From Heteronotia binoei (Eukaryota), in contig NC_083229.1 of assembly GCF_032191835.1 (NCBI RefSeq), positions 88,288,001-88,352,000 on the forward strand: a stretch of DNA of 64,000 bases, in the 5' to 3' direction. Position 1 is the stretch's first letter. Every line of letters starts with the position of its first letter. The translations under genes were made by a program, and so were the position numbers. Positions 13,511-55,996 of this stretch are shown here, piece after piece. Under the pieces are notes generated by a model. The model was not told where the DNA came from and made no database searches. It worked only from the letters and a program-made list of their open reading frames with translations.

Positions 13511-16220
13511 TGAGAGGGGGGTGGTCCAGTCCCTCCAATCAAACCTCCGTGTAACCTTTCTGGTCCCACCAATCAGTCCCCCGCCACTTGCCGCTGCTCT
13601 GTTCAAGAAGTGCCTGCTGTCACCATCGTTGCTCCTTTCTCTCTCCTCTCTCCATTACCATCCAGCCTGATAAAAAGTGCAGAAGATGAAAGCTCTTGCA
13701 TAATTTTGTGACGATTAAAGGGATAATGTGGCATTTTTAAGGGGATTCCACAAGATATTTTGAGAATTGGCACTGAGAGCCTTGCCCCCCCCCCTTTAAA
13801 CAAAAAATCCTGCTTGTAGACCCACCAAATTTGAAATCATGGCTACGGCCCTGACTGCAGGTTGGCAATCCTCCTTCACCAAGTTCTAAAAGGAAAAAGG
13901 AAGTAAATGTTGTTCAAATATTCTATATAACCACAGCTACAAAACATGTCAAGACACAACAGTGCCCCTGGCAGATACAGTCCTTTTAGGTTGGGTAATA
14001 ATAACTGTCTCTGACAGTAACTTGCTGAAGTAAACAGCCATTTTAAGCAGCTCTAATAGCAAAAAGAAATAATAATTTCAAAACAGTTTATTTTAAGACT
14101 TTAAAAAAAAATCTTCTCACCCCAATACTTAAATATGCATTGAAGCTTATAAAATGAAGCCAAAAGTGACAAAACGAAAGCATGCTTTGCTAAGACAAAA
14201 AAGCCTTAGTTTCAGTAGTATCCAAAATAAACTTTTGACTCGGCGCAACATTCTTCTACAAAATAAACTCAAGTCTTTTGCCAGCAATAACCTATATACT
14301 GATGTGGTATTAAAAGAAACTTGGACGCTTGAGCTGGGAGACAAACTGTCAACCAACCACTAATTGGATTTTATGATGTGACTCACAGTTTAGCAATTTC
14401 CCAGAATTTAATCACAGTGCACCCAAAAAGATCAATTAAAGAACAGTCTCAGAATTTGTTAGAGCCTTGTGTGGAATGGGGCAAAATGATGATCTCAGAA
14501 AGTTCACCACAAAATTTTATGAATGAACAAAGAAAGGATTTCTAAAAAGGAAAGATTCATCTTGGTCACCTTTTTTGGTTTTTTGAACAGCAAAAATGTT
14601 TTTAAATTGCACTTATGCATTCAAAGAGGAATACATTGGTTGCTCCTGTTTTAAAACACTTTTCTACACACCAGGATTAACATGAAAATTTCCAAAGCTT
14701 TCATTCATCCAGTGAGAACTGAGGCATATGAAACAAGTTCCTTTACATTCAAGGATGCACTGTAAGCATTCAAGACTTCACTAGATAACCCCAAATGGAT
14801 TTTCTCACCCAAATTACTTACCCACTACTGGGGCATCCAACAGCATCAGCTAACAGGTAGAGCTAGGAAAAGTTTTGGTGAGTTTATTTATTATCATTTC
14901 AGCACACCAAGAATGCAAAGTGGGTAACACATCCAAGAAGCTGCTTAGCTTCAGAAGTATATAATTTTCAAAGCCATGCTCTTATAATAATTTAGTTAAA
15001 ATATTAATACTTCTGTCTTTTCCCTGACCAATTCAGGACCCAATTATGACTAATTAGTCTCACAATTCTTGACACTTTATAAAAATATAAAAAAAACGGA
15101 GATGCCAAATTGTACATGAAAATACAAGCTGCATTAGCCCATAATGCTTACCTTCAAATGTTAAGGTGAGCATTACAATCCTGAATTCTTCTCTTGTTCA
15201 GCTAGCCAGTCAACTATGCATATGGAGTCTCTTTACCTGGTCTTTTCGGGTACTGAAGTGCACACTGGGACATGTAGCCCACATGGCATATGAATGGACT
15301 ACATTTTCCAGGGCGCACTATGCGATAACAAACAGCATTTGAAGATTTGGGGAAGGAGAGAGAAGTATTTGGTCCATCTGGCTAAACAGCCCATCAGTTG
15401 GCTAGACAGCCTGCAAACAACACTTAGTGTGGCTTGGCTGTCTGGAAACTAACAGGGAAGACACACCTAAATAGATTAGAGAACTAAATAGATTAGAAAA
15501 CTAAAAGAGATGGGGAAAATATTTCAGTTTTTCATTGTTGCCTGTGAATAGATGGATCCTTTCTTATTTTAGTCTAAGGGGGCTGTTAATTTCTGTATCA
15601 AATTATCTCAACCTATGGAAATAGAGCCATTTAAATAGAACCTACCTTTACCTTATTAGTTTTTTTTTCGTTAGTCACACTAACAGTGCAATTCTAAACA
15701 AACTCAATATCCTTTAACACTCTTGAAGTCCATGGGCCTGGAAGGGTATAACTGAACTTAGGGGTACACTACTGTTACAATGATGCACCCTTGTTACAAT
15801 GATTCTTGAATTATTTGTAACATCTGTCAAGCATGCATATTTCTAAGCACAATGGTGGGTTCTTAAACAGAAAGGAGACTGTTAGTATCCCTCTCCTCCC
15901 TCACTTTCTTTCGAAAGGTTGGGCAAACAGTAATTCCATCTAGCCCAAGGATGTTCTCGCTGCAGCCGGGCTGTGAGGTGCCTCTCCCCCACATTCACAC
16001 AGACAGCTCTTATCAAGTCTGGAAGAAGTGTGAGAAATGGAGATGTTTTTAATAATCTATATTCCTTAGTAGTAAACTAGATACTATGTACCAACCTTTG
16101 AACCCGTGACTCAAAAAGCATCAAAAAAGTATGTTATCCTTTGAACTAATCCTATATAGTAACAGTATAATCATGTATATGTCATTACTTCCAAGGATTC
16201 TGTCCTTGGTAAAGCTTCAG

Positions 16221-16643
16221 TGTCAGAACTTGTAATTGGCGAACCTTATGATGGTTGTGCCTGCTTAGCCTAACTGAATCCATATTGTAACTGTTGAGAA
16301 ATAGCCAGCTTTGTATCTAGCGTAGTGCCCAAATGCTTTGCATTCCAATCGAACTGTGACCACTGGAGGGTGACAGGGAGTCCTTGGGAAACATCTGCCA
16401 GTACCCTTTGAAGCTCTGCCTCCCCCTCGCCGCTCCCGACGATAAGGAGCCTTGAAAACAGAACAGGGCCTCCTGAAGGGTGGGAACCAGTTTGTTATTG
16501 TAACTAGCCTAGCTTAAAGAATCTAACCGCTGCTGAACTTGTTATTAGAATCAACTCGTCTTCTACCTGAACACAGTTCTCAATAAACGCTTAGACTTTA
16601 ACCAGAGTTATGAGCCTCGTTTGACGTTCTTCAAGTTCTGACA
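16221..16643 (+). repeat. 5' LTR (423 bp)
   Basis: 12-bp terminal IR tgtcagaacttg/caagttctgaca; AATAAA near 16582; one difference from the 3' LTR (G16529 vs A20017). Confidence 0.97.
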
Positions 16644-16645
16644 TT

Positions 16646-16656
16646 TTGATTCTAAT
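16646..16656 (+). promoter_or_regulatory. Self-priming primer-binding site (Tf1/sushi type)
   Basis: TTGATTCTAAT is the exact reverse complement of ATTAGAATCAA at 16544-16554 in the LTR; there is no TGG-type tRNA PBS. Confidence 0.8.
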
Positions 16657-16692
16657 CCTTTGGAGCTTATCCGAGCTGGGAACTTTGGCTAG

Positions 16693-19535
16693 ATGGCTGA
16701 AAGGGCGCCAGATAACGGAGAGCCCACCAACGAAACGATGTAAGAAGGAGGACGGCCCCGACCGAGCGACGGGACGAGACCGTGGCCGGATGAGGCGGAC
16801 CTCTGGGCCTTGATGGAGGAGATCCAGGCCAGCCATGTCCAGATCACCCGGGAAATCCGGGAACAGCTGGACGCGATCCGGAGGCAGACCGGAGCCCGGC
16901 AGGGAGACCTCCGAGGGGGACCGCGGGGCGCGCCGGTCCCGCTACCCCCGCCGGTGCCGCCACCACCGCCCGGTCCACCACCAGCGCCGGCCGCCCCGGT
17001 GAGAGCGGATGGGGGGGGACCCGAGAATTGAAAATCACGTTCGATGGAGATGGAGACGAAGTGGAATACTTCACCATCCAGTGCAACAATTTCTTCACGC
17101 ACTGGGGAACAAGCTACCCCACGGAGGCGAGTCGGGTGGACCACATCGCTTCCAGGTTGAAGGGGGCCGCGCGGAAATGGTACGTGGGGTTGTACGCCGG
17201 GCGCAAACCCGAGTTAGCCACGGTGGCCGACTTCCTCCAAGCCATGTTGCGCCAGTACGGGGACCCCCTACGAGAGGAGAAAGCCATCGTGGCCCTGCAG
17301 AGAATCGAGCAAGGGAACCGCACAACCCGCGAATACGCCACCGAGTTTATGGGGCACTGCACGGCAGCGAGAGGATGGAACGAGGTGATGAAGTACACGG
17401 CGTTCAAAAACGGGCTGAACGCGAACATCCTCGACCGGTGCTACAGCCAAGGGCGACCCGACACCTTGGTGGGATGGATCCAGCTGGCGGGAGAAGTGGA
17501 GACCAACTTGCAGCATGTCAAGATGCGCCACCAGCAACAACTGGCCAAGAAAGGGGGAAAGTCGGGCCTCGCCGCCGGCAAGACCGAAGGAAAGCGGTCC
17601 CCCATGACCTCCACCCCCGCTGCAGCCAGCAGGAAGTGCATCAGGTGCGGCGACCCCGGGCACCTGGCCGCCAACCACCCCGTGAAGCAGACACCGACTT
17701 CACTACTCTCCCAACCGTTAACCAGACAGAAATTTCCAAATCTATCAATTCTCTCCTATCCCACTCGGGGGAAAAAATTTTCACCCTTTTGGAGCGCATG
17801 TATCTAATTAAATAATTAATTCTACCTAAGATTGTGTTCTATTTACAGGCGGTCCCTCTGTGTGTTCCAGCCTCTCTGCTGCATAAATGGCAATCCCAAA
17901 TAAATGAATTTGTGTGGCAGCATCGGAAGCCAAGGCTCAATTTTGCCTCAAGTAGACGGCCTATTTCGCTGGGTGGATTAGCTTTCCCAGATATTTCAAA
18001 CTACCATGATGCTATTATCCTCACTAATTTGGTGAAATATTATAGGTCCTCCTACGTGGCGGACTGGAAGTCGATTGAGGATTTTTATCTCAGGGCCCCC
18101 TCTTTCCAGGAGGAACTCTGTGTGTGTCTAAGCGCGTCAAAACTTCTTCTTCTCCGAACCCTTTTTTGGCCTCCATGCTGCAGGTTTGGTGTAAACACTG
18201 TAATAAGTTAGCTCCCCCGACCTCCTCCTTAACCACTTTTGTTAGACAGCCCTGGTTCGCTCCGGCGCTGAGTAAAGACTCGTTTATGCAATGGAAACGT
18301 CTAGGACTGACCCGATTTGCTGATGTTCTTCTTAAGGGGGTACTGAAAGATAAAGTGACTCTGGAGGCTGACTCTGACCTCCGACTACCCTGGTTTGAAT
18401 ACCTTCAACTTAAACATTTATTAGATACACATTCCTTCAGTCCCCCTCTGCGCGTCCACCTTGCTGGCTTTGAAAAGATCCTATTCGGTGATTCAATCCC
18501 GATCAAAGGACTGATCTCAAAAATATATCAATTGCTACTCAGCCCCCTTAATGCAAAGCCGCACTCCTATCAAGGTGCCTGGGCTCGAGATTTGCAGATA
18601 GAACTAACTGAGGAGCAATGGCGAGCCATCTGGGGTTCTTCCATATATAAAACGAAAGCAATGAATGTCCAACTTCAAGCTCTTAAAGTCCTCACACGAT
18701 GGTACCGGACCCCAGTGCAGCTAGCGCACTCGTCTTCCATCTCACCCCTCTGTTTCAAGAACTGTGGACAGAGGGGTACTTTTCTCCACTCCTGGTGGCA
18801 TTGCCCAATCATAAATAGCTTTTGGAGACAAATCTATCAAGAAGTACAAGAACTCACATCATACTCTCTCCTCCATTTACGCCCAAATTTGCCCTTTTAA
18901 ATCTTCTAGATAACTCAAATATCCCCGAATTTGCAGAGGAATTGATCTCGCTCATGTTTGTGGCTGCTAAATTTGCAATAGCTCTAGTTTGGAAACAACA
19001 CTCTCCCCCCTCACGACAAACTTGGTGGTTAAAATTGTGGGATTATTTTGCACTGGATAAGCTCACTTATGACTTAGGCCCTCATCGTTCCCAACAAACT
19101 GCTTCCTCGAATTTTATAGAAAAATGGCGAACCTTCATTGATAAAGATTATGATGATAATAGAATCCCCAATGCCTCATACCACGCTATATTGATGTCCT
19201 GTCAATTACTTTCGTAACTGCACTCTGTAATGTTTCATGGTGTCATGTTTTGATATTTGATGCATACTCATGGTTTTCGTTTGTTATATCTGTATCGCAC
19301 TTCTTAACTCAATAAAGCATTCCAAATGGTAAAAAAAAAAAAAGCAGACACCGACCCCCACCCAGGCCAAGCCGTCCACGGGCACCCCGGAGAAAGGGGG
19401 GGCCGCGCCAAGGAGCCCAGTCGGGGCACCGTCGCCACTTCCATGGCGATTGACGAGGATGTTACCACCATTGAGGAGTCGGGCGAGGGGTCCCGGGACC
19501 CAGAGCCGGCGGGAAACGACAACGACCTGCTTTAA
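16693..19535 (+). pseudogene. Gypsy gag, about 395 aa when reconstructed; disrupted by TAA at 16741, two G-run frameshifts and the L1 insertion
   Basis: Retrotransposon capsid motifs (FDG..EYF..QC, LKGAARKWY, IEQGNRTTREYATEF, FKNGLN), knuckle CIRCGDPGHLAANH and C-terminus ..EPAGNDNDLL*. Confidence 0.9.
17699..19341 (+). mobile_element. L1-clade LINE, 5'-truncated 1643-bp insertion in gag
   Basis: ORF2 C-terminus (ILPKIVFYLQAVP, SLGGLAFPD, CFKNCGQRGTFLHSWWHCP), AATAAA at 19311, poly(A), 14-bp TSD aagcagacaccgac (17685-17698 / 19342-19355). Confidence 0.95.
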
Positions 19536-19572
19536 CCGGTGCCGCAAAGCAGGTCCGGGAGACGCCGGCACC
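19511..19572 (+). promoter_or_regulatory. -1 ribosomal frameshift signal: G GGA AAC slippery site plus H-type pseudoknot
   Basis: Heptamer 19511-19517 in the correct gag phase; 6-nt spacer; S1 19524-19533/19546-19555 (10 bp); S2 19538-19544/19566-19572 (7 bp). Confidence 0.85.
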
Positions 19573-19583
19573 AGTAACGGTAG

Positions 19584-19697
19584 AAACACTTTCCCCCTAG
19601 TTGCGATGAATGGGTCAAAGCCAGTGATGTGTCTGCCCCACAACTGCTTAAAAAATTCCACCTACTGTATCCACACAAGCCCCGGGCGAGGGCCTAG
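19584..19697 (+). pseudogene. C-terminal remnant of the integrase chromodomain
   Basis: (W>*)KHFPPSCDEWVKASDVSAPQLLKKFHLLYPHKP* fits the chromoviral W..AENV.AP.LV..FH..YP.KP tail directly before the PPT. Confidence 0.75.
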
Positions 19698-19703
19698 GGG
19701 GGG
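19696..19703 (+). promoter_or_regulatory. Polypurine tract
   Basis: AGGGGGGG, 5 nt upstream of the 3' LTR. Confidence 0.8.
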
Positions 19704-19708
19704 CAGTA

Positions 19709-20131
19709 TGTCAGAACTTGTAATTGGCGAACCTTATGATGGTTGTGCCTGCTTAGCCTAACTGAATCCATATTGTAACTGTTGAGAAATAGCCAGCTTT
19801 GTATCTAGCGTAGTGCCCAAATGCTTTGCATTCCAATCGAACTGTGACCACTGGAGGGTGACAGGGAGTCCTTGGGAAACATCTGCCAGTACCCTTTGAA
19901 GCTCTGCCTCCCCCTCGCCGCTCCCGACGATAAGGAGCCTTGAAAACAGAACAGGGCCTCCTGAAGGGTGGGAACCAGTTTGTTATTGTAACTAGCCTAG
20001 CTTAAAGAATCTAACCACTGCTGAACTTGTTATTAGAATCAACTCGTCTTCTACCTGAACACAGTTCTCAATAAACGCTTAGACTTTAACCAGAGTTATG
20101 AGCCTCGTTTGACGTTCTTCAAGTTCTGACA
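19709..20131 (+). repeat. 3' LTR (423 bp)
   Basis: 422/423 identical to the 5' LTR; followed by the TSD TTCAG. Confidence 0.97.
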
Positions 20132-23100
20132 TTCAGAGTTTCTACAATAAAGCAACTTTTGATTTCACAACAAAAGACTGATTATTGAGAAATATCGATG
20201 CTTGACAACATCTACCAACTTCAGGGATGTCACTAGAAAAGAAAACCATTGCATTGATTCAGGAAAAATCAAGGTCAAATAAAATACTTTATACCTACTC
20301 AAAACACTTGTGAATATAGCCCAGGATTGCTACTCTACCTAGAAATCACTGGTGTGTAGAAGTCTTTCCCATCCTTCTTGTTCCTCTGAAAAACATGAGA
20401 ATATACATGGGTAGCGCAAGGCCACTGAAGATTTCTATGTTTACAATAGCTCCGCACAGCCAATTCTTCTATGCTAATGCATATTATATATATAAAGCTG
20501 TATGGAGACAGGAGAGGTGTGTACAGGCTTTCCATAACCTGAATGGCCAGTTATGCTGCTTACAGGCACATCTGTGAGCAGAGAAAAGCAAACGTAGTGT
20601 TCTTGGAAGCACTATTATTGAACCACGGCATGGCAGTACTGTATATGAAATGAGACCAAGTTGAGTAAATTAGGTGCCCAGTTTAGAATATAAGCATATA
20701 ATAAACTGTTGTTGTCTTGTACTGCCATCAATGAACCTAGAAAACAGCGCTTTTTAACAAAAGAAAGCAGAGGCAGGAACAAAAGAAAAAATGGGAAAGA
20801 TATGCTAGAATGGTTGCAGATTACAGTTTGTTAATGTTCTCCACTCAACCTTTTAATTCATTTGCATTGCTCTTTATGTATGCTATGATGGTTCATCTGT
20901 CAACTGGCACAGTGCCAAAGATCAAAGAACCAATTTGTTAAATAAACACCTTATTGATGGATTAATGCAGTCTTGCAAACAGTGACTCACACATGTAATA
21001 GTATTAAGACTGGCTTGTTTACACATTTTGTCTGAGAAGCATTATAACGGGATCATTGGGAACAGGCTTAATTTTTTTTTATTTTAATCCACAAAGAATA
21101 ATTTCCACATATATTATGATGGAAATACTTTGTAAATGAAACAACTGAGTCTATTAGGGTCTCATACTGAAAAAAATACTTCTCAAACTCATCCTCTTGC
21201 TTAATTATCAGAGTCTGCATGGCCTTTAAAAGCTCTCTGGATGGACTACATACTAAATATTTTATAGACAACATCTGGTTTGATGACAGCCCATTTACCA
21301 GTGTTCAAATGAAAAGACATAAATCAGCACTTCACAGCTAACTCCCGGGCTCTCACATGCACACAGGCAAACAAAATAAGGCAGCTTGCTGAACTCTTGA
21401 CATTTCACAAGCAGCAAGTGAAGAGAGACAAGGCAGGAGAAAGAGCTGGCAGCAGTATTGAGGAGGAGGAAATAAAGGAGAAGCTCCTGTCAACTGGAAG
21501 CAATTTCAGAAGATTCTTGAGGCAGGGGTATCTGCTGCTAGGTCACTAGTCTAACTAGCCAACCCACTATGCTTATATAAATCTACATATACTGATTCAG
21601 GTATCAGCCAAAGGAGTGACAGCTGTCTTTTTAGCACACATTTGACCAGACACTTATACTGCAATAATCCTGCTCAAATGTATGGCAGTTGTGTGGGTGC
21701 TACTAAACTAAACCCACTAAACTAAAAGGGATCCATCTGAGAAACGTTCTGACTTAATTGTGTCTTCAATTACCTTTAATTGTCTTTCCCATTAATATTC
21801 ATAATGATTTTAAACAAGATCTAAAAGAAATCTTAACATTCTAAATATATAATGCAGAGACTGATGTATGCCACTCTGAGCTTTTGGGAGAAAAAGCAGA
21901 AAACAAATGGATCACAGAGTTTTGGCCAAAAAGCAGAGCGTTGCCCCCAATGTCTGACAATGTCACTTCTGGGTGACATCAGCACATTGCAGGGCTACAA
22001 CTCCCCCAAAATCCCCACATCAGCACAACGAAAGGACCTGGCAATCTTAGCTTTGTCCAATGCATGCTAGACGTTTGTGCAGTGAAACAAATGTTGACAA
22101 GCTATGATACTATGATGAGCTATGATGGCGTAGTCCTAAGGCTTGCCTTTTAGCCTACATTCCTGATTTGTAGAATAACTGTGACCAACCTCACAGGATG
22201 ATGGGGGGGAGGTAAACAAGGAAATTTAAAAACGCTTCAGCCCATTTAAACTTTCTGTCCTGGAAGAATTTCAAATCAGGCAGCTTTCTCCTCAAAGGAA
22301 GGAAAACACTGCAGATTAACCAGATTGTGCAAAATTTATTCAAATAACATATCTACACCGGACCCACTCCTAGAAAGAAAAGGGCTTAATATAAGATACC
22401 CAGGGAAATGCTATCTTTAGATAAATACAATAAAAGTCAGCTCACATGCCAAAGCAAGTTGACAATTATCACAATAGCATGAAGCCTGAACAGGCATGGT
22501 AGGGGGAGAGGAGAAGACATTGACTAGTCTAAAGAACATAAATGGAGGGCTCATCAGCTCTTTCATCTATTGGCCACTTAACATGCAGAACAAGGTCAAT
22601 ATTGTTTATGACAAAGTACAGAAGAGGTGAGCCCTTCAAGCAAGAAGTAAGCTATGAATAAATATAATCTATTTATTTACTTAAGGAAAGGAAGTTTACC
22701 ACAGCAGACAAATTCCAACTAGTACCAGGCAGACAGTCTTCCAATAGAAAAGAGATTTATGGTGTTGCAAGCAGTGCAATAACAAATGGTGGCATTGTCA
22801 ACCATCAGCCTGCTTACTGGGAGAGTACTGAGCCCTTTTTAAAGAGCTCTTCAGGTATACCCTGGCTAGCTGCATTAATGTCTGCATGGCAAACCCAGAC
22901 TCCACAACATGTTTTTCAGCAGGGCCATATCAACAGCCAAGTAATGGGAAACAGCTGCTATTCTTTTTTCCCGGGGGGGGGGGGGGTGAGAGGAACCTGG
23001 CACAATTACAGCTACAGGAATGTATCTTGCCTTTATGTTGAGCATAATAATAAAAACATACCTAACAATAATGCAGCAGATCCCCCTCCCTATTTTTATG

Positions 23101-35035: not shown

Positions 35036-35204
35036 NNNNNNNNNNNNNNNNNNNNNNNNNNNNNNNNNNNNNNNNNNNNNNNNNNNNNNNNNNNNNNNNN
35101 NNNNNNNNNNNNNNNNNNNNNNNNNNNNNNNNNNNNNNNNNNNNNNNNNNNNNNNNNNNNNNNNNNNNNNNNNNNNNNNNNNNNNNNNNNNNNNNNNNNN
35201 NNNN
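35036..35204. other. Assembly gap (169 N)
   Basis: Run of N. Confidence 1.
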
Positions 35205-35324: not shown

Positions 35325-35420
35325 CTTGCATTGTTGTTTTTGTAGGTTCAGAGAAGAGAGGAATGAGCAGGAGGTAGATGAGGTAGACAAATGAAAGCCC
35401 ATTGTAGCGGAATGCACATG
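35325..35420 (-). CDS. PIEZO2: PIEZO2 coding exon 2 (96 bp, phase 1 to phase 1)
   Basis: Translates (A)CAFRYNGLSFVYLIYLLLIPLFSEPTKTTMQ(G), which I recognise as the PIEZO2 N-terminus. Acceptor ctgtcttttttctctttatctgtgcag; donor G|gtaaga. Confidence 0.95.
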
Positions 35421-36990: not shown

Positions 36991-37443
36991 TGAAGGAGAG
37001 CCACTGAATAATTAATTAATACCCCCAATAATAATATTTGTCATATTGAGTAAAAATATGCTTTGTCTTCAAACAAAGGGGTCTGTTGTAAAACTACCGT
37101 TAGAAACTGACTTTACTGCCCAGTGGGTATGAGCTCCAGCTGTAAGATTAGATAAGGGAACAGCCTCCTACAGGCGACTTGCTTTATATAAATAAGTAAG
37201 GAAACTTCGTCATGGAAATTTACTAGGAGGAGTTCTGTGAAGGCAGGACCTTTGAAATCAGATAAGCCTGTGTGCCTGCCTGCTTGTTTTCTGTGTGAAT
37301 AAAACTGTCTGTATATAGAATGATTGTAACTCAGTCATTTTGGGGGCCCATGCCCGACTGGGTCCTGCTTATGGTATCATAAAGTAAACCTCGCTTCAAA
37401 CCAGTAAGTCTGTGCAGACGGACCTCATTATTTCTCTGCTTCA
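36991..37443 (+). repeat. ERV-like 5' LTR (453 bp)
   Basis: TG..CA termini, TATA-like tatataaata near 37186, AATAAA near 37298. Confidence 0.9.
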
Positions 37444-42098: not shown

Positions 42099-42539
42099 TG
42101 AAGGAGAGCCCATGAATAATTAATAATACCCGCAATAATAATATTTGTCATATTGAATAAAAATATGCTTTGTCTTCAAACAAAGGTGTCTGTTGTAAAA
42201 CTGCCGTTAGAAACTGACTTTACCGCCCAGTGGGTGTGAGCTCCAGCTGAGATTAGATAAGGAACAGCCTCCTACAGGCGACTTGCTGTATATAGATAAG
42301 TAAGGAAACTTCGTAATGGAAATTTACTAGAAGGAGTTCTGTGAAAGCAGGACCTTTGAAATCAGACCTGTGTGCCTGCCTGCTTGTTTTCTGTGTGAAT
42401 AAAACTGTCTGCATGTAGAATGACTGTAACTCAGTCATTTTGGGGGCCCATGCCCGACTGGGTCCTGCTTATGGTACCATAAAGTAAACCTCGCTTCAAA
42501 CCAGTAAGTCTGTGTGGACCTCGTTATTTCTCTGCTTCA
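42099..42539 (+). repeat. ERV-like 3' LTR (441 bp)
   Basis: Direct repeat of 36991-37443, followed by CATG. Confidence 0.9.
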
Positions 42540-48064: not shown

Positions 48065-48820
48065 TTCCCCCAATGCCTAAAGCCTCAGGTGAGAAGCCTG
48101 TCTCAGTTGTCTCCCCATTCTTTCTATGAGGGTCCTTCCTCAAGGCATTTCTGTCTTCCATACAAACAAGGTAAGAGACTCCAAGAGAGCGGGTCTAGGC
48201 TCAGACTCAGCAGATCTCTCCTGGGCTTTATCTATGCAGTCAGGGGCCAGCTGTGCAACAACCTGAAACTTCAGGTTTGCCAGCACTGACAATGCCTTGT
48301 GCCACTATAGATGTATCTACAATTGGCCAATCTCTGATGCCTGGAACCTCAGGTGGGAGAGACTTGTCTTAATGGTCTCTTTTTTCTCTTTTTTAAGAAA
48401 CTGGTGATGGGGCCTTTCTTCAAGGTTTTCTGTCTTCCATACCAATGAGCAAACATATCGATAAGGTAAGAGGCTCCAAGAAAGCAGAATCTCCAAGAAA
48501 GCAGAGCTGGGGCCTGCTGCAGTCGGAGGGCTATAAAATACCGGAGGGTCAGTCTACACATATTTGCATAGCCCTGCCTGGAGCAAGAGGAGGCATGACC
48601 TAACCAGTTTGGATTACTTCCCTCACTGAAGGAGAATGAACCTTTCTCTCTTTTCTCATTTTCCTTGTTAATAAAAAGACTCTTTAGTTCAAACAAATCA
48701 CTCGTTTATTTCGAGAGTTCTCACAGGCAATCTCCATAAATGTTGGTGTTTTGATTCCAGTTGCCCCCACTTGCACAGTCTCCTATGATAATTCCCATCC
48801 ACTCAACTAACTGAAGACTT

Positions 48821-50746
48821 ATGATGGAAGGCTTAAAGATAGCGGCTAAACGTAAAAACTGTGTCGTAGTAGGTGATTTTAACTACCCGCAGATTGATTG
48901 GGTCAATATGTGTTCTGGTCGAGAGAAAGAGATTGAGTTTCTTGATGCTCTCAATGACTGTGCTATGGAGCAGATGGTCTCAGAACCTACTAGGGGTGGG
49001 GCGATCCTGGATTTGGTCCTAAGTAATGCCCAAGACTTGGTGAGAGATGTAAAAGTGATCGCGCCGCTTGGGAGCAGTGACCATAATGTTATTGATTTCA
49101 CCATTTGTATAAATAGGGAGTTGCCCAAAAAGACCGCCACAACCACGTTTAACTTTAAAAGGGGTAAATTCTCTGAGATGAGGAGGCATGTGAGGAGGAA
49201 ACTGAAAGGAAAGGTAAATACGGTCAAAACCCTTGGGGAAGCTTGGACACTATTTAAAACTATAATCCAAGAAGCTCAGATAAAATACATACCACAAGTT
49301 AGGAAAGGCACAAACAGGTATAAGAAAAGGCCTGCATGGTTATCAAACAAAGTAATGGAAGCTGTAAAAGGTAAGAAAGACTCCTTTAAACGGTGGAAAA
49401 CCAGTCCAAGTGAGATTAATGAAAGGGAACACAGGCTGTGGCAAATCAAATGCAAGACTGTGATCAGGCAGGCAAAAAGGGACTATGAGGAGCATATTGC
49501 AAAAAACATAAAGACCAACAATAAAAATTTCTTCAAATATATTAGAAGTAGGAAACCAGCCAGGGAGGCAGTGGGGCCCTTGGATGACCATGGGGTAAAA
49601 GGATTACTGAAGGAGGATAGGGAAATGGCTGAGAAGCTGCATGCATTTTTTGCCTCCGTCTTCACTGTGGAAGATGAGAACTTTTTGCCCACCCCTGAAC
49701 CACTAATGTTGGAAGGGGTGTTGAAAGACCTGAGTCAGATTGAGGTGACAAAAGAGGAGGTCCTACAACTGATAGACAAATTAAAAACTAATAAGTCACC
49801 GGGTCCGGATGGCATACATCCGAGAGTTCTGAAAGAACTCAAAGTTGAACTTGTGGATCTTCTAACAAAAATCTGTAATCTTTCATTGAAATCTGCCTCC
49901 GTTCCTGAGGACTGGAAGGTAGCAAATGTCACCCCCATCTTTAAAAAGGGTTCCAGAGGAGATCCAGGAAATTACAGGCCAGTCAATCTGACTTCAATAC
50001 CGGGAAAGTTGGTAGAAACCATTATCAAGGACAGAATGAGTAGGCACATTGATGAACACGAGTTATTGAGGAAGACTCAGCATGGGTTCTGTAGGGGAAG
50101 ATCATGCCTCACTAACCTGCTACATTTCTTTGAGGGGGTGAACAAACATGTGGACAAAGGAGACCCGATAAATGTTGTTTACCTTGACTTCCAGAAAGCT
50201 TTTGATAAAGTTCCTCATCAAAGGCTCCTTAGAAAGCTTGAGAGTCATGGAGTAAAAGGACAGGTCCTCTTGTGGATCAAAAACTGGCTGAGTAATAGGA
50301 AGCAGAGAGTGAGTATAAATGGGCAGTCTTCGCAGTGGAGGACGGTAAGCAGTGGGGTGCCGCAGGACTCGGTACTGGGTCCCATGCTCTTTAACTTGTT
50401 CATAAATGATTTAGAGTTGAGAGTGAGCAGTGAAGTGGCCAAGTTTGCGGATGACACAAAATTGTTCAGGGTGGTGAGAACCAGAGAGGATTGTGAGGAG
50501 CTCCAAAGGGATCTGTTGAGGCTGGGTGAATGGGCGTCAACATGGCAGATGCGGTTCAATGTGGCCAAGTGCAAAGTAATGCACATTGGGGCCAAGAATC
50601 CCAGCTACAAATACAAGTTGATGGGGTGTGAACTGGCAGAGACTGACCATGAGAAAGTTCTTGGGGTCGTGGTAGATAATTCACTGAAAATGTCAAGACT
50701 GTGCGTTTGCAATAAAAAAGGCCAACGCCATGCTGGGAATTATTAG
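48821..50746 (+). CDS. CR1 ORF2 (partial endonuclease + RT), frameshifted near 50700
   Basis: 641-codon open frame with YLDFQKAFDKVPH, GVPQDSVLGP and KFADDTKL; continues in another frame from 50730 (MLGIIRKG..). Confidence 0.9.
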   Translation: MMEGLKIAAKRKNCVVVGDFNYPQIDWVNMCSGREKEIEFLDALNDCAMEQMVSEPTRGGAILDLVLSNAQDLVRDVKVIAPLGSSDHNVIDFTICINRELPKKTATTTFNFKRGKFSEMRRHVRRKLKGKVNTVKTLGEAWTLFKTIIQEAQIKYIPQVRKGTNRYKKRPAWLSNKVMEAVKGKKDSFKRWKTSPSEINEREHRLWQIKCKTVIRQAKRDYEEHIAKNIKTNNKNFFKYIRSRKPAREAVGPLDDHGVKGLLKEDREMAEKLHAFFASVFTVEDENFLPTPEPLMLEGVLKDLSQIEVTKEEVLQLIDKLKTNKSPGPDGIHPRVLKELKVELVDLLTKICNLSLKSASVPEDWKVANVTPIFKKGSRGDPGNYRPVNLTSIPGKLVETIIKDRMSRHIDEHELLRKTQHGFCRGRSCLTNLLHFFEGVNKHVDKGDPINVVYLDFQKAFDKVPHQRLLRKLESHGVKGQVLLWIKNWLSNRKQRVSINGQSSQWRTVSSGVPQDSVLGPMLFNLFINDLELRVSSEVAKFADDTKLFRVVRTREDCEELQRDLLRLGEWASTWQMRFNVAKCKVMHIGAKNPSYKYKLMGCELAETDHEKVLGVVVDNSLKMSRLCVCNKKGQRHAGNY

Positions 50747-51242
50747 GAAGGGAATTGAAAACAAATCAGCCAGTATCATAATGCCCCTGTATAAATCGAT
50801 GGTGCGGTCTCATTTGGAGTACTGTGTGCAGTTCTGGTCGCCGCACCTCAAAAAGGATATTATAGCATTGGAGAAAGTCCAGAAAAGGGCAACTAGAATG
50901 ATTAAAGGGCTGGAACACTTTCCCTATGAAGAAAGGTTGAAACGCTTAGGGCTCTTTAGCTTGGAGAAACGTCGACTGCGGGGTGACATGATAGAGGTTT
51001 ACAAGATAATGCATGGGATGGAGAAAGTAGAGAAAGAAGTACTTTTCTCCCTTTCTCACAATACAAGAACTCGTGGGCATTCGATGAAATTGCTGAGCAG
51101 AAAGGTTAAAACGGATAAAAGGAAGTACTTCTTCACCCAAAGGGTGATTAACATGTGGAATTCACTGCCACAGGAGGTGGTGGCGGCCACAAGCATAGCC
51201 ACCTTCAAGAGGAGGTTAGATAAAAATATGGAGCAGAGGTCC

Positions 51243-51397
51243 NNNNNNNNNNNNNNNNNNNNNNNNNNNNNNNNNNNNNNNNNNNNNNNNNNNNNNNNNN
51301 NNNNNNNNNNNNNNNNNNNNNNNNNNNNNNNNNNNNNNNNNNNNNNNNNNNNNNNNNNNNNNNNNNNNNNNNNNNNNNNNNNNNNNNNNNNNNNNNN
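51243..51397. other. Assembly gap (155 N) inside the CR1 3' end
   Basis: Run of N. Confidence 1.
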
Positions 51398-53280
51398 GAA
51401 TGTTGGACTGGATGGGCCATTGGCCTGATCTAACATGGCTTCTCTTATGTTCTTATGTTCTTAAGACTGTCTCTTCAGGTAATGTATATAGAATATTTTT
51501 TGTCAGAGGCAGGTTCTTATTTTCAAACACCCACCAGTCAACCCTCATTCCCTGAATCAGAAGTCTCTTTCATTTTGTAGGACCCTCCTTTTCTTTCTCA
51601 CTTAAATGTTTTCCAACCCATGTTGGACTGCTCATGAAAAACTTTTCCCCATAGAGGAGGAATACATTTGAAGGCCCCCTTCTTATTAAAGAAGCACAGA
51701 CGGTTAAGCAAGCCTCCAGAAAAAGGGAATAGCCTGTTTTGTCCAACAGCTACTGCAAGCAGCTGCTTCTGGAGAGATTTTTTTCTGTCTCTCTCTGCTC
51801 AATTTTTTTAAAAAAACTTTTCTAAGCATGTGGCTTGAAGGACACTGCTGTTTCTCATTAGACTTCAAGTCTTATTCTCCCCAGAGCATGCCACATAGAG
51901 ATGGATTCTATACAAACAGCATGCTCGCCATTTGGTTGTTTGCCTAGGAGCCGCTGATCCTTACCCAAGATGAGCAGCAAATTACAAATCTGGTGAGTGT
52001 TATCAATCAGTATTATTATGTTTAAGCAAACAAGTTATAGGAAGGAAGCACCATACATCAGCTTCTTACATAATTTAATGGCAACCTGCCACATATACAA
52101 ATGCATACTATAAATACAAACACTGAAGAGATAATAAAAAATCTGAAAGCATAATTCTGTCACAAAGCAGCGTTTTTTCCCCTTTGAATCCAGCAGTTAT
52201 TAACTGAATGATGTGATGTGCTTTATTTTCACCACTGATTTAAAGTTTTCGTTTGTACTAACAAGCTTCACAAACCTCTATATTCCCTGTAAGCCTTAAA
52301 TTATAGTTACGGGGAAATACAGCTGCATAAAATTTTCACAGCATACTGCTAATGTGCAAATTACAAAACTGACAGATGTAGAGTATTTCAGCTTTGTGGC
52401 ATGACATCATTTTTCAAAGAGCTGGAAATTAAGTTTGCAACTAACCAATGCTTATACCTATGCTTCTATTAATGCTAATCAAATTACTCAGAACTAATTG
52501 AGCCCTGCTGTTCAAGATTTAGTGAATAAAGATATTTATTCTGCCATGATATACAAAACAGTTTTGGCTAACAAGCCCAACAGCTTCAGCAAACAAATGC
52601 ATATAGTGGATCTGAGAGTGATCAAGGAAGAATCTTGCAACATGCTGAGTTTATGAAGATGATGAGACATCCAGCTAAAACATACCATGCAGAAATCTGG
52701 AACTGCTGGATGATGAAAGGTCATAACACAATGGAGAATTATAAGCTGAGACGAGAATCTTGCTTATCACAGAATCAAGGTGCAATGTTAACTTATTATG
52801 TTATACCTATATGACTACAAATAGTATCCTTAGTTATACTTTTAAAAAATGGAGGAAATCCTTAGGTTCCAACACTGATTCAAGAGTCTGGTTCCATTTA
52901 TTTACCTGAGGTAGTTCCTTCTCAATTTCTACTTTATTTCAAGAAAATGTTCGTAAGACATTACATTACTGGCACCTTTTACCTGTGAGGGTTGCTAGAA
53001 TTTATAGAAATAGTAATAATTGCTGTTAGTTTTGTGAACAGATGAATGCTAACTTTTTTGCATATGTGGTGGCACTGTGAGAGAGCAAACTTGTTCTGGG
53101 ATATGGTGGCGAACTGTCATTGGTCTTTAACATAAATGATAAAAACTGTAGAACTTGTTCTGCTTAATTATACAGTATATATTCCAAAATAATATCAAAC
53201 CATTGGTTTATATTTACTGACTGCTGTGAGGTGGTCTTTGCAAAAGTTCAGAAATTAAGGCCGCATTAGATTGGTTAAAT

Positions 53281-55482
53281 CTCTCTCGGCTTGACTTCGC
53301 GAACGAAGATTTAAGAAAGGTGCAGTAGTCCACGTCTGTTGCAGGCTCGCTGGTGGCTGACAAGACCAATGCGGGACAGGCAGGTCCGGCCACAGTGGCT
53401 GCAGGGAAAAGTCTGATTTGGGGTTGGTGCTGTAGCAGTACGATTCTTCCTCAATCTCCTTTTGTCCTCAAGACCAGCTATGCGTGCATTCTCAAAGGAA
53501 GAGACAGCCTGGTGGATGGTGTGCCTCCATGCTTTGCGATCTGAGGCTAGGTCAGACCACTGGTGATGGTTAATGCAACAGGTACCAAGGGATTTCTTCA
53601 AGGAGTCCTTGTACCTCTTCTTTGGTGCCCCTCTATTTCGATGGCCGTTGGAAAGTTCGCCATACAGGGCAATCTTGGGAAGGCGGTGGTTTTCCATCCT
53701 GGAGATATGCCCTGCCCAGCGCAGCTGCGTCTTCAACAGCAATGCCTCGATGCTTGTAACCTCCGCCCGCTTGAGGACTTCAGTGTTGGTCACAAAGTCA
53801 CTCCAGTGGATGTTGAGGATGGTGCGAAGGCAGCGCTGATGAAAGCGCTCAAGGAGTCGCAGGTGATGACGGTATAAAACCCACGATTCGGAGCCGTAGA
53901 TGAGGGTTGTCATCACAACCGCTTTGTAAACATTGATCTTTGTGCCTTTTTTCAGATGCTTGTTGCTCCACACTCTTTTGTGCAGTCGGCCAAATGCATG
54001 GTTTGCCTTTGCCAGCCTATTGTCAATCTCCTTGTCGATCTTGGTGTCTGAGGAGATGATGCACCCCAGGTAGCTGAACTGCTGGACTGTCTTCAAAACT
54101 GATTCACCCACAGTAATACAAGGAGGGTGATAATCTTCCTGGGGTGCAGGCTGGTGGAGAACTTCTGTCTTCTTCAGACTAACTTCTAGGCCGAATAGCT
54201 TGGCAGCCTCTGCAAAGCAGGACGTCATATGCTGCAGAGCTGATACCAAGTGGGAGACAAGTGCAGCATCATCAGCAAACAGTAGCTCTCGGATAAGTTT
54301 TTCCATTGTCTTGGAGTGGGCCTTTAGTTGCCACAGGTTGAACAGGCTGCCATCGGTGCGATAGCGGATGTAGACACCATTGTCATCATCTAAATCTACT
54401 GTGGCTCTTTGAAGCATCATGCTAAAGAAGATCGTAAAGAGAGTTGGCACGAGAACACAGCCTTGCTTTACACCTGTGCCTATTGGGAAGGGCTCCGAGA
54501 GATCGTTGCAGTGTCTGACTTGGCCTCGCTGGTATTCATGTAGCTGGATGACCATACTGAGGAACCTTGGGGGACATCCTAAACGTTCCAAGATTTGCCA
54601 CAGGCCGTTCCTGTTAACGGTATCAAAAGCTTTAGTAAGGTCGACAAAAGTCACATATAGACCCTTGTTCTGTTCCCTGCATTTCTCTTGGAGCTGCCTG
54701 AGAACAAATACCATGTCGGTGGTGCTCCTGTTAACTCTGAAGCCACACTGGCTCTCTGGGAGGAGTTCTTCTGCAATGGTGGGCACCAGTCTGTTCAGGA
54801 GTATTCTAGCAAGGATTTTGCCTGCGATGGAGAGCAGGGTTATCCCCCAGTAGCTGGAGCAGTCTGACTTTTCCCCTTTGTTCTTATGTAGAGTAATGAT
54901 GATTGCACCGCGAAAGTCCCGTGGTAGTTTGCCTTGTTCCCAGCAGGTGACAAGTACTTTGTGAAGTGTACTATGTAGTACTATGCCCCCATGCTTCCAG
55001 ATCTCTGGTGGAATTCTATCAACTCCCGCTGCCTTGCCACTTTTCAGTTGCTTGATGGCTTTAACAGTCTCTTCTAGGGTGGGGATCACATCCAACTCTG
55101 TTTTCACTGGTTGAAGTGGGGTGAGGTGGATTGCTGAATCTTGAACTATGCGATTGGCACTGAAGAGATCCTGAGAATACTCCGACCACCGGTTCAGTAT
55201 GGATGCCTTGTCTGTGAGGAGCACTTGGCCATCTGCAGTACGCAAGGGACTCTGAGCCTGATATGATGGATCATATACTGCCTTCAGGGCTTCGTAGAAC
55301 CCTCTTAAATCACCAGTGTCTGCACACAGCTGGGTTCTCTCTGCAAGCTTGGTCCACCACTCGTTCTGAATGTCTCGAAGCTTGCGCTGGAGGTTGCTAC
55401 ATACAGCGCGAAAGGTTGCTTTTTTCCCGGGACAGGAGGGCTGAGCAAGATGTGCTTGGTAGGCAGATCTCTTTTTCGCCAG
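53281..55482 (-). mobile_element. RTE-clade LINE (not BovB-type), 5'-truncated
   Basis: VDLTKAFDTVNR, GVKQGCVL and LLFADDAAL motifs; 3'UTR taaatcttcgttcgcgaag.. with an (AG)n tail; possible 5-bp TSD taaat. Confidence 0.93.
53311..55482 (-). CDS. RTE reverse transcriptase with C-terminal zinc finger, uninterrupted but lacking the endonuclease
   Basis: About 720 open codons ending FPCSHCGRTCLSRIGLVSHQRAC..*. Confidence 0.9.
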   Translation of the reverse strand: MAKKRSAYQAHLAQPSCPGKKATFRAVCSNLQRKLRDIQNEWWTKLAERTQLCADTGDLRGFYEALKAVYDPSYQAQSPLRTADGQVLLTDKASILNRWSEYSQDLFSANRIVQDSAIHLTPLQPVKTELDVIPTLEETVKAIKQLKSGKAAGVDRIPPEIWKHGGIVLHSTLHKVLVTCWEQGKLPRDFRGAIIITLHKNKGEKSDCSSYWGITLLSIAGKILARILLNRLVPTIAEELLPESQCGFRVNRSTTDMVFVLRQLQEKCREQNKGLYVTFVDLTKAFDTVNRNGLWQILERLGCPPRFLSMVIQLHEYQRGQVRHCNDLSEPFPIGTGVKQGCVLVPTLFTIFFSMMLQRATVDLDDDNGVYIRYRTDGSLFNLWQLKAHSKTMEKLIRELLFADDAALVSHLVSALQHMTSCFAEAAKLFGLEVSLKKTEVLHQPAPQEDYHPPCITVGESVLKTVQQFSYLGCIISSDTKIDKEIDNRLAKANHAFGRLHKRVWSNKHLKKGTKINVYKAVVMTTLIYGSESWVLYRHHLRLLERFHQRCLRTILNIHWSDFVTNTEVLKRAEVTSIEALLLKTQLRWAGHISRMENHRLPKIALYGELSNGHRNRGAPKKRYKDSLKKSLGTCCINHHQWSDLASDRKAWRHTIHQAVSSFENARIAGLEDKRRLRKNRTATAPTPNQTFPCSHCGRTCLSRIGLVSHQRACNRRGLLHLS

Positions 55483-55996
55483 TAAATACAGCAAAATAAA
55501 TGAACTAGTAAAATTGATTTAAATGCAAAAATCCCAAGATATAAAAGCATTGAAATAATTTGGAGCTTTGTCATATTGAGGATTAAAACAATTTCTTAAA
55601 ATTTTTTACCATACTTAACTGTATAAGCAATCATATATAAAATATTTGTAATATTTAATGTAGGTATGGTTGAACTGGAGAAAGAATTAATTTTACCTAC
55701 TTTATGCAACCTATAAATTAGTAATAAAAATCAACTAAAATACAACTGTAAAAGAAATAAACTAGTATTAAGTCTGGTTAAAATTGATATATTTCTATGT
55801 ACATTGTATTTACAACTATGAATCCATAATTAATTCCTCCAGACAGGTTCTACTACAAACTCAATAAAGTCATTGGAACAATACTATAGCTACCTCTTAG
55901 TAATCCTGCTTCTAAACCTTATATATCTAATGTTCAATAATATTTAAATGCTTGGTTGAACTAAAGTTACAAGGTTGAAGGTGAAAATGAATAGTC

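Follow-up and report, generated by a model that had tools for sequence, protein, structure and literature searches.

How a long terminal repeat (LTR) retrotransposon that keeps its copying signals came to be without enzymes is the question raised by a locus in Heteronotia binoei DNA (contig NC_083229.1, positions 88,288,001 to 88,352,000 of the forward strand). This whole stretch of 64,000 nt is the window, and all positions below follow its numbering. The element spans 16221-20131 (3911 bp), and an earlier interpretation made from the letters alone (the sequence-only reading) had described it as a gag-only chromovirus that supplies capsid and borrows its enzymes from a helper. The answer that we favour, tentatively and at slightly less than an even chance, is that it is an ordinary pol-deleted chromovirus derivative formed during reverse transcription, for which no capsid role is needed. 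The ends of the element, its cis signals and the deletion junction are arranged as follows.

16216..16220, plus strand: 5' target-site duplication (TSD), TTCAG, repeated at both flanks
16221..16643, plus strand: 5' LTR, 423 bp, with the self-primer at 16544-16554 and AATAAA at 16582
16646..16656, plus strand: primer-binding site (PBS) of self-priming type, complement of LTR 16544-16554
19511..19572, plus strand: -1 frameshift signal, GGGAAAC and a predicted H-type pseudoknot, located by complement search
19581..19583, plus strand: deletion junction; relatives hold other sequence between its two points
19584..19697, plus strand: 37-codon chromodomain-like integrase C-terminal end (codons 19584-19694, stop 19695-19697)
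19697..19703, plus strand: polypurine tract (PPT), G7, five bases upstream of the 3' LTR
19709..20131, plus strand: 3' LTR, 423 bp
20132..20136, plus strand: 3' TSD, TTCAG, repeated at both flanks

The locus holds a young copy of an LTR retrotransposon. Its two 423-bp LTRs differ at one base and lie between 5-bp TSDs (TTCAG at both flanks), as the sequence-only reading had stated; the sole mismatch, at 16529, reflects the loss of a CpG from the 3' LTR. LTR termini form 12-bp perfect inverted ends (TG...CA). Compared by eye with the Sushi LTR motifs given in PMC3601003, the LTR start fits TGTYANR and the LTR end fits CNTNACA at 6 of 7 positions. Subtraction of an L1 that interrupts gag, together with one copy of the L1 TSD, gives 3911-1657 = 2254 bp, which agrees with the unit length reported before. 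Under assumed rates and with a wide error, one LTR mismatch corresponds to an insertion age of 0.5-2.4 Myr.

This age bears directly on the possibility that a full-length element was inserted and lost pol later through a DNA-level deletion, which we regard as improbable. One mismatch in 423 bp leaves little time for such an event (the Poisson range for one mismatch is 0.025-5.6), and both breakpoints are near cis signals, 9 nt after the pseudoknot and 114 nt before the PPT. On the other side, the locus took a later hit, if the L1 arrived after the insertion, and two intact LTRs make elements of this kind noticeable, so that the neat ends may partly be a matter of observer selection.

All cis signals that had been described as retained (LTRs, PBS, frameshift signal and PPT) could be located. 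The 11-nt PBS starts two bases past the 5' LTR and is the exact complement of 16544-16554; a match of this type occurs in 4 of 20,000 shuffled LTRs, and the self-priming PBS proposed earlier is borne out by it. In the minimum-free-energy fold the two segments are paired (z -1.88 against shuffles). In Tf1-type self-priming, the PBS is complementary to the 5' end of the element's own RNA (PMC4600332). With the LTR body nearly without RNA reads that would mark the RNA start, the self-primer was judged from complementarity. The frameshift signal, likewise recognized earlier, is composed of the slip site GGGAAAC (19511-19517) followed by two complementary stems, 19524-33/19546-55 (10 bp) and 19538-44/19566-72 (7 bp), and the pseudoknot that they would form is a prediction. 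When this stretch is folded alone by a method without pseudoknots, the fold is no better than in shuffles (z -1.18). The -1 frame continues for 29 codons after the slip site and is closed at 19598.

None of the enzyme domains, protease (PR), reverse transcriptase (RT), RNase H (RH) and integrase core, was found in the element. A jump had been placed near 19575-19583, and RNA reads and contigs of relatives confirm it and refine its points to 19581/19583. Organism A, possibly not the species of the window, is the source of the RNA data: 241, 250, and 249 reads, obtained by reading about 6% of each of three raw runs from two samples, plus 134 contigs. Read and contig counts are given among the matches listed, and thus as lower bounds. 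At least seven reads in X6 and at least two contigs in X1 match the window as far as 19581 and then continue into other sequence, as illustrated by one 922-nt contig in which 150 nt are matched with 7 differences and the following 772 nt are unlike the window. From the opposite side, at least three reads in X7 enter the window at 19583 from other sequence. Reads and contigs leaving and entering at these points fix the deletion and reveal that longer relatives exist, in accordance with the proposed loss of pol.

We infer that the extra sequence of the relatives is pol, based on its location, which is after the frameshift signal and before the chromodomain-like end, and on gecko gene models that join close relatives of this gag to RT or integrase pieces. 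Among named proteins, Heteronotia binoei gene models come closest, with 87% and 93% over parts of the capsid. Two gecko gene models, P0001 and P0020, contain RVT_1 (E 7e-38 and 1e-38, respectively) beside gag tails that are 46-57% identical, and the RT of P0020 has Ty3 RT as its nearest PDB match (E 1e-65). A third one, P0002, combines capsid at 87% with a weak Integrase_H2C2 piece (E 0.001). The dependence on enzymes from elsewhere that had been suggested is supported, as pol is absent here and longer relatives are present in the RNA data.

Most of the reads that cover the region are 90-95% alike and derive from longer relatives. The LTR body is almost devoid of reads, and in the three runs 8, 10, and 6 of them exit at 19723, after the first 15 bases of the 3' LTR; a variant LTR is therefore carried by most of the expressed relatives. 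The suggestion of a helper with the same LTR is weakened by this pattern, although a 143-nt contig (95%) discloses that the same LTR type also exists. Further loose ends are five reads in X7 at 19556 and one contig in X1 at 19543. Together with the ends at 19723, those at 19543-19556 suggest that several related subfamilies with variant LTRs are expressed.

Downstream of the junction, the 37 codons previously read as the end of the integrase chromodomain reach 13.0 bits against a three-sequence chromodomain profile, a score attained by 0 of 2000 shuffles. What remains seems similar to the C-terminal half of a chromodomain only. No match to these codons was found in Pfam or PDB, and their top Atlas cluster contains PF00385 in 20% of members, a share of low recognition value. 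The profile score speaks for the earlier assignment, but no Pfam or PDB match accompanies it.

Collapse of the assembly as the cause of the missing pol is very unlikely. Two N gaps are present in the window, and frame breaks at G runs in gag hint at base-level error; the junction, however, is without a long collapsible repeat, and elsewhere in the window a 735-codon frame, presumably RTE-like, is open.

The junction could also have been made by splicing, if the element were the integrated complementary DNA (cDNA) of a spliced gag-only RNA from a full-length element, with pol as the intron. Joined to the start of the extra sequence of relatives, 19579/19580 reads, by eye, as a GT donor-like site, and with a crude matrix, donor-like strength of this degree is found within three offsets of a random window point in 0.2-0.4% of cases. 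Spliced gag RNAs are known in Ty1/copia elements (PMC5580714, PMC7197481). We nevertheless consider this origin improbable too. The donor-like pattern is a post hoc observation, three X7 reads of the right-hand parent are without AG at the required place (maybe they represent another subfamily), and the -1 frameshift signal would already set the Gag:Pol ratio. In addition, PMC5580714 reports no conserved splicing of such kind in Arabidopsis Ty3/gypsy elements. A splice joint could not show in the RNA comparison because the window is itself the joined form.

For the pol-deleted derivative that we favour, a template jump in reverse transcription is the likely cause of the loss of nearly all of pol. 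By eye, the two parent sides are briefly and imperfectly alike at the junction, which fits such a jump. The deletion would have happened at the RNA or cDNA stage, in the present or in an earlier round, since one LTR mismatch leaves little later time and the breakpoints are just short of cis signals. The RNA would have been self-primed as in Tf1, the enzymes of a full-length relative likely copied and inserted the element, and integrase would have made the 5-bp TSD. The product is possibly a single copy or a passive parasite, and a role of its own gag would be unnecessary.

Whether the element could nevertheless act through its gag depends on the condition of this region, which is interrupted by the L1.

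16693..17030, plus strand: gag 5' part, ATG at 16693, in-frame stop at 16741-16743, coiled-coil-like and Pro-rich stretch
17025..17684, plus strand: gag capsid with zinc knuckle, open over 220 codons
17685..17698, plus strand: L1 TSD, left copy, 14 bp (right copy 19342-19355)
17699..19341, plus strand: 5'-truncated L1 on the same strand as the element, with the C-terminal part of open reading frame 2 (ORF2), AATAAA at 19311 and an A tail
19342..19535, plus strand: gag 3' tail, second frame break at G run 19396-19402, stop at 19533-19535

The presence of gag, as claimed before, is verified by a match of the capsid to Retrotrans_gag (PF03732, E 9e-12). The match to Ty3_capsid (E 3e-6) is below the cut-off of that family, the zinc knuckle is weak, and a PDB search with the capsid gave no match. 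The Gag is of Ty3/gypsy type, and its closest relatives are squamate gypsy Gags. The description of this copy as disabled also holds, because gag is broken in four places: the L1 insertion, a stop codon at 16741 and two breaks of the frame. A break somewhere in 16794-17018, probably in the G run 17011-17018, puts the 5' part out of frame with the capsid, and the ATG-to-stop length without the L1 amounts to 1186 nt, which is not divisible into whole codons. The gag of this copy likely makes no useful capsid and gives no support to the claim that the element supplies capsid; P0002 (87% identity) has one offset too, as its match to the capsid frame extends upstream across the first G run with apparently the same frame offset (16794-17030).

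Homopolymer assembly errors or slips in a template that was shared may account for the two frame offsets; recoding is the least likely cause, and was considered for the first run in view of the offset in P0002. One related contig has a different length at the G run 19396-19402. This difference, and the lack of stable structure downstream of 17011-17018 (z +0.44 and -0.69), disfavour a programmed frameshift at the first run. Zero reads lie over that run, and linker composition did not separate the frames.

In spite of these lesions, the gag lineage appears to have been under selection until recently, as suggested by an open capsid frame of 220 codons, its kept CpG (observed/expected 1.05) and an excess of synonymous changes. 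In comparison with two related contigs, 11 of the 20 differences listed, out of 37 in the stretches of those contigs, are synonymous, where 30% are expected (p 0.016). This selection may predate the deletion.

These observations are relevant for the reading in which the copy is a disabled member of a multi-copy family similar to the gag-only plant elements called TR-GAG, whose masters make Gag and borrow PR, RT and integrase from a helper. We hold this to be unlikely, while giving it more weight than the other alternatives. It would account for the neat breakpoints with all cis signals spared, for the synonymous excess in gag (11/20 listed) and for an LTR unlike that of most expressed relatives, as in a separate subfamily; a plant precedent exists (PMC4350172). 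However, limited RNA, protein and contig searches revealed no second junction-bearing copy, and loose ends at the junction, among the matches listed, all stem from longer forms. Gag is broken here, and the synonymous excess may sit on the branch of the relatives or be older than the deletion. A second copy with the junction was found neither in proteins nor in metagenome and viral contigs, both of little power for a gecko repeat, nor among the RNA matches listed, a listing of loose ends and differences rather than of bridging reads. A protein search with the third frame crossing the junction scored 0 of 11 candidates (proteins of 78-249 aa only). Capsid scans let through 4 of 80 stretches in metagenome contigs and 4 of 7 in viral contigs, throughout with the same 13-residue match, and these were rejected as spurious.

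Some points weigh against the pol-deleted derivative as the preferred explanation. The deletion neatly leaves every cis signal intact. The negative result for a second copy is based on about 6% of each raw run and on the matches listed, from an organism that is possibly another species. Finally, recent selection on the gag lineage also fits a gag-coding family. A combined scenario, in which a self-priming vertebrate chromovirus splices out the whole pol and its gag-only RNA with both LTR ends is integrated and founds a TR-GAG-like gecko family, seems to us decidedly improbable.

The L1 inside gag is 1643 bp long and is supported by an ORF2 match (E 5e-13). The joint without L1 (17684>19342) is present in one contig at ~91% identity. 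The poly(A) signal of the L1, being in the sense of the element, would likely shorten element transcripts. If the L1 predated the LTR pair, it would have travelled within the element's RNA; in a check of this, CpG losses made up 5 of the 10 fixed differences listed, against 1.75 expected (p 0.03; p 0.97 at the rate upper bound). One expressed contig matches the L1 at 99% (15 differences and 3 gaps in 1542), which indicates the presence of a young L1 family.

Two further features define the surroundings of the element.

15825..20207, plus strand: older solo-LTR-like repeat hosting the element, 467 bp without the insert, with TG...CA ends, ACATC flanks and AATAAA at 20146
35325..35420, minus strand: PIEZO2 exon, residues 23-53, identified by protein match, with AG/GT ends

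The ends of the solo-LTR-like repeat match over 20 nt in inverted orientation, 5-bp repeats flank it, and RNA reads cover it well. Joints that correspond to the empty site (16215>20132) were detected, with five starts in X6 and two contigs in X1. They were rejected as evidence of polymorphism at the locus, because the flank itself is a repeat.

The element is antisense to PIEZO2, and its location in an intron of this gene, as stated by the sequence-only reading, can be inferred from the exon found 15.2 kb away on the minus strand. The next exon, however, was not found in the window with two motifs, and exon-1 motifs were also without a match. Long open RT frames at 48815-51428 (643 aa and 246 aa) and 53311-55518 (735 aa), which we take to be CR1-like and RTE-like, suggest other young long interspersed nuclear elements in the same gene. 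Direct repeats of ~400 bp at 37017-37419 and 42124-42519 are 5.1 kb apart and up to 96% alike, and this pair is possibly another LTR element. The two N gaps of the window are at 35036-35204 and 51243-51397, the first one 120 bp from the PIEZO2 exon.

At present, the element is one further defective LTR retrotransposon copy, of use only for showing that chromoviruses were recently active in a gecko and as a clean example of a self-primer, a frameshift pseudoknot and a PPT. If its junction defines a family with a selected Gag, semi-autonomous elements of TR-GAG type would be extended to a vertebrate lineage related to those from which PEG10-like genes arose. If splicing made the junction, this would show concretely how a full retrotransposon can become a gag-only unit.

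Compared with known systems, the element seems to derive from a chromovirus of Tf1/sushi type (Ty3/gypsy, Metaviridae). It shares with them the self-complementary PBS, the LTR ends, a Ty3-type capsid and, in the part that remains, a chromodomain-like integrase end. It differs from them in having no PR, RT, RH or integrase core, and its placement draws on PBS, LTR ends and gag. With PEG10, in which a GGGAAAC slip heptamer precedes a pseudoknot (PMC2800197), it has the identical heptamer in common, together with a pseudoknot that is predicted in the gecko element. PEG10, however, is a conserved host gene without LTRs and with an open second frame, whereas the gecko insertion is young and broken and bears no mark of domestication. 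A domesticated gag gene of PEG10/RTL type was ruled out by the two near-identical LTRs and the broken gag.

Spliced gag RNAs of copia-type elements (EVD shGAG, copia, BARE) are documented in PMC5580714 and PMC7197481. They resemble the gecko element in being gag-only products after removal of downstream coding sequence, and differ from it because this is a genomic gypsy copy with both LTRs, while the EVD RNA ends early and splicing is hypothetical here. In titles and abstract openings of mostly open papers, with repeat databases outside the scope, neither a gag-only chromovirus family in squamates nor an integrated spliced gypsy copy was encountered, which is a weak negative.

In sugar beet, according to PMC13570524, 43 of 115 non-autonomous LTR families keep GAG/PROT or Pol remnants, including chromodomains, and sizes of 1.5-4 kb are common. 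Coding remnants and size are similar in the gecko element, although those are demonstrated plant families and here there is one copy. The nearest counterpart is TR-GAG, the gag-only non-autonomous LTR retrotransposons of plants (Chaparro et al. 2015, PMC4350172). Both are below 4 kb and have two LTRs, a PBS, a PPT, a 5-bp TSD and gag with a zinc knuckle, with enzymes absent. TR-GAGs are multi-copy, transcribed plant elements with open gag, and TR-GAG1 has a tRNA PBS; the gecko element, in contrast, is a vertebrate one, seen in one copy, with a self-priming PBS and a gag that is not open, and it retains a frameshift signal and a chromodomain-like stub. The structure is therefore not new in kind, as gag-only non-autonomous LTR elements are known in the form of plant TR-GAGs.

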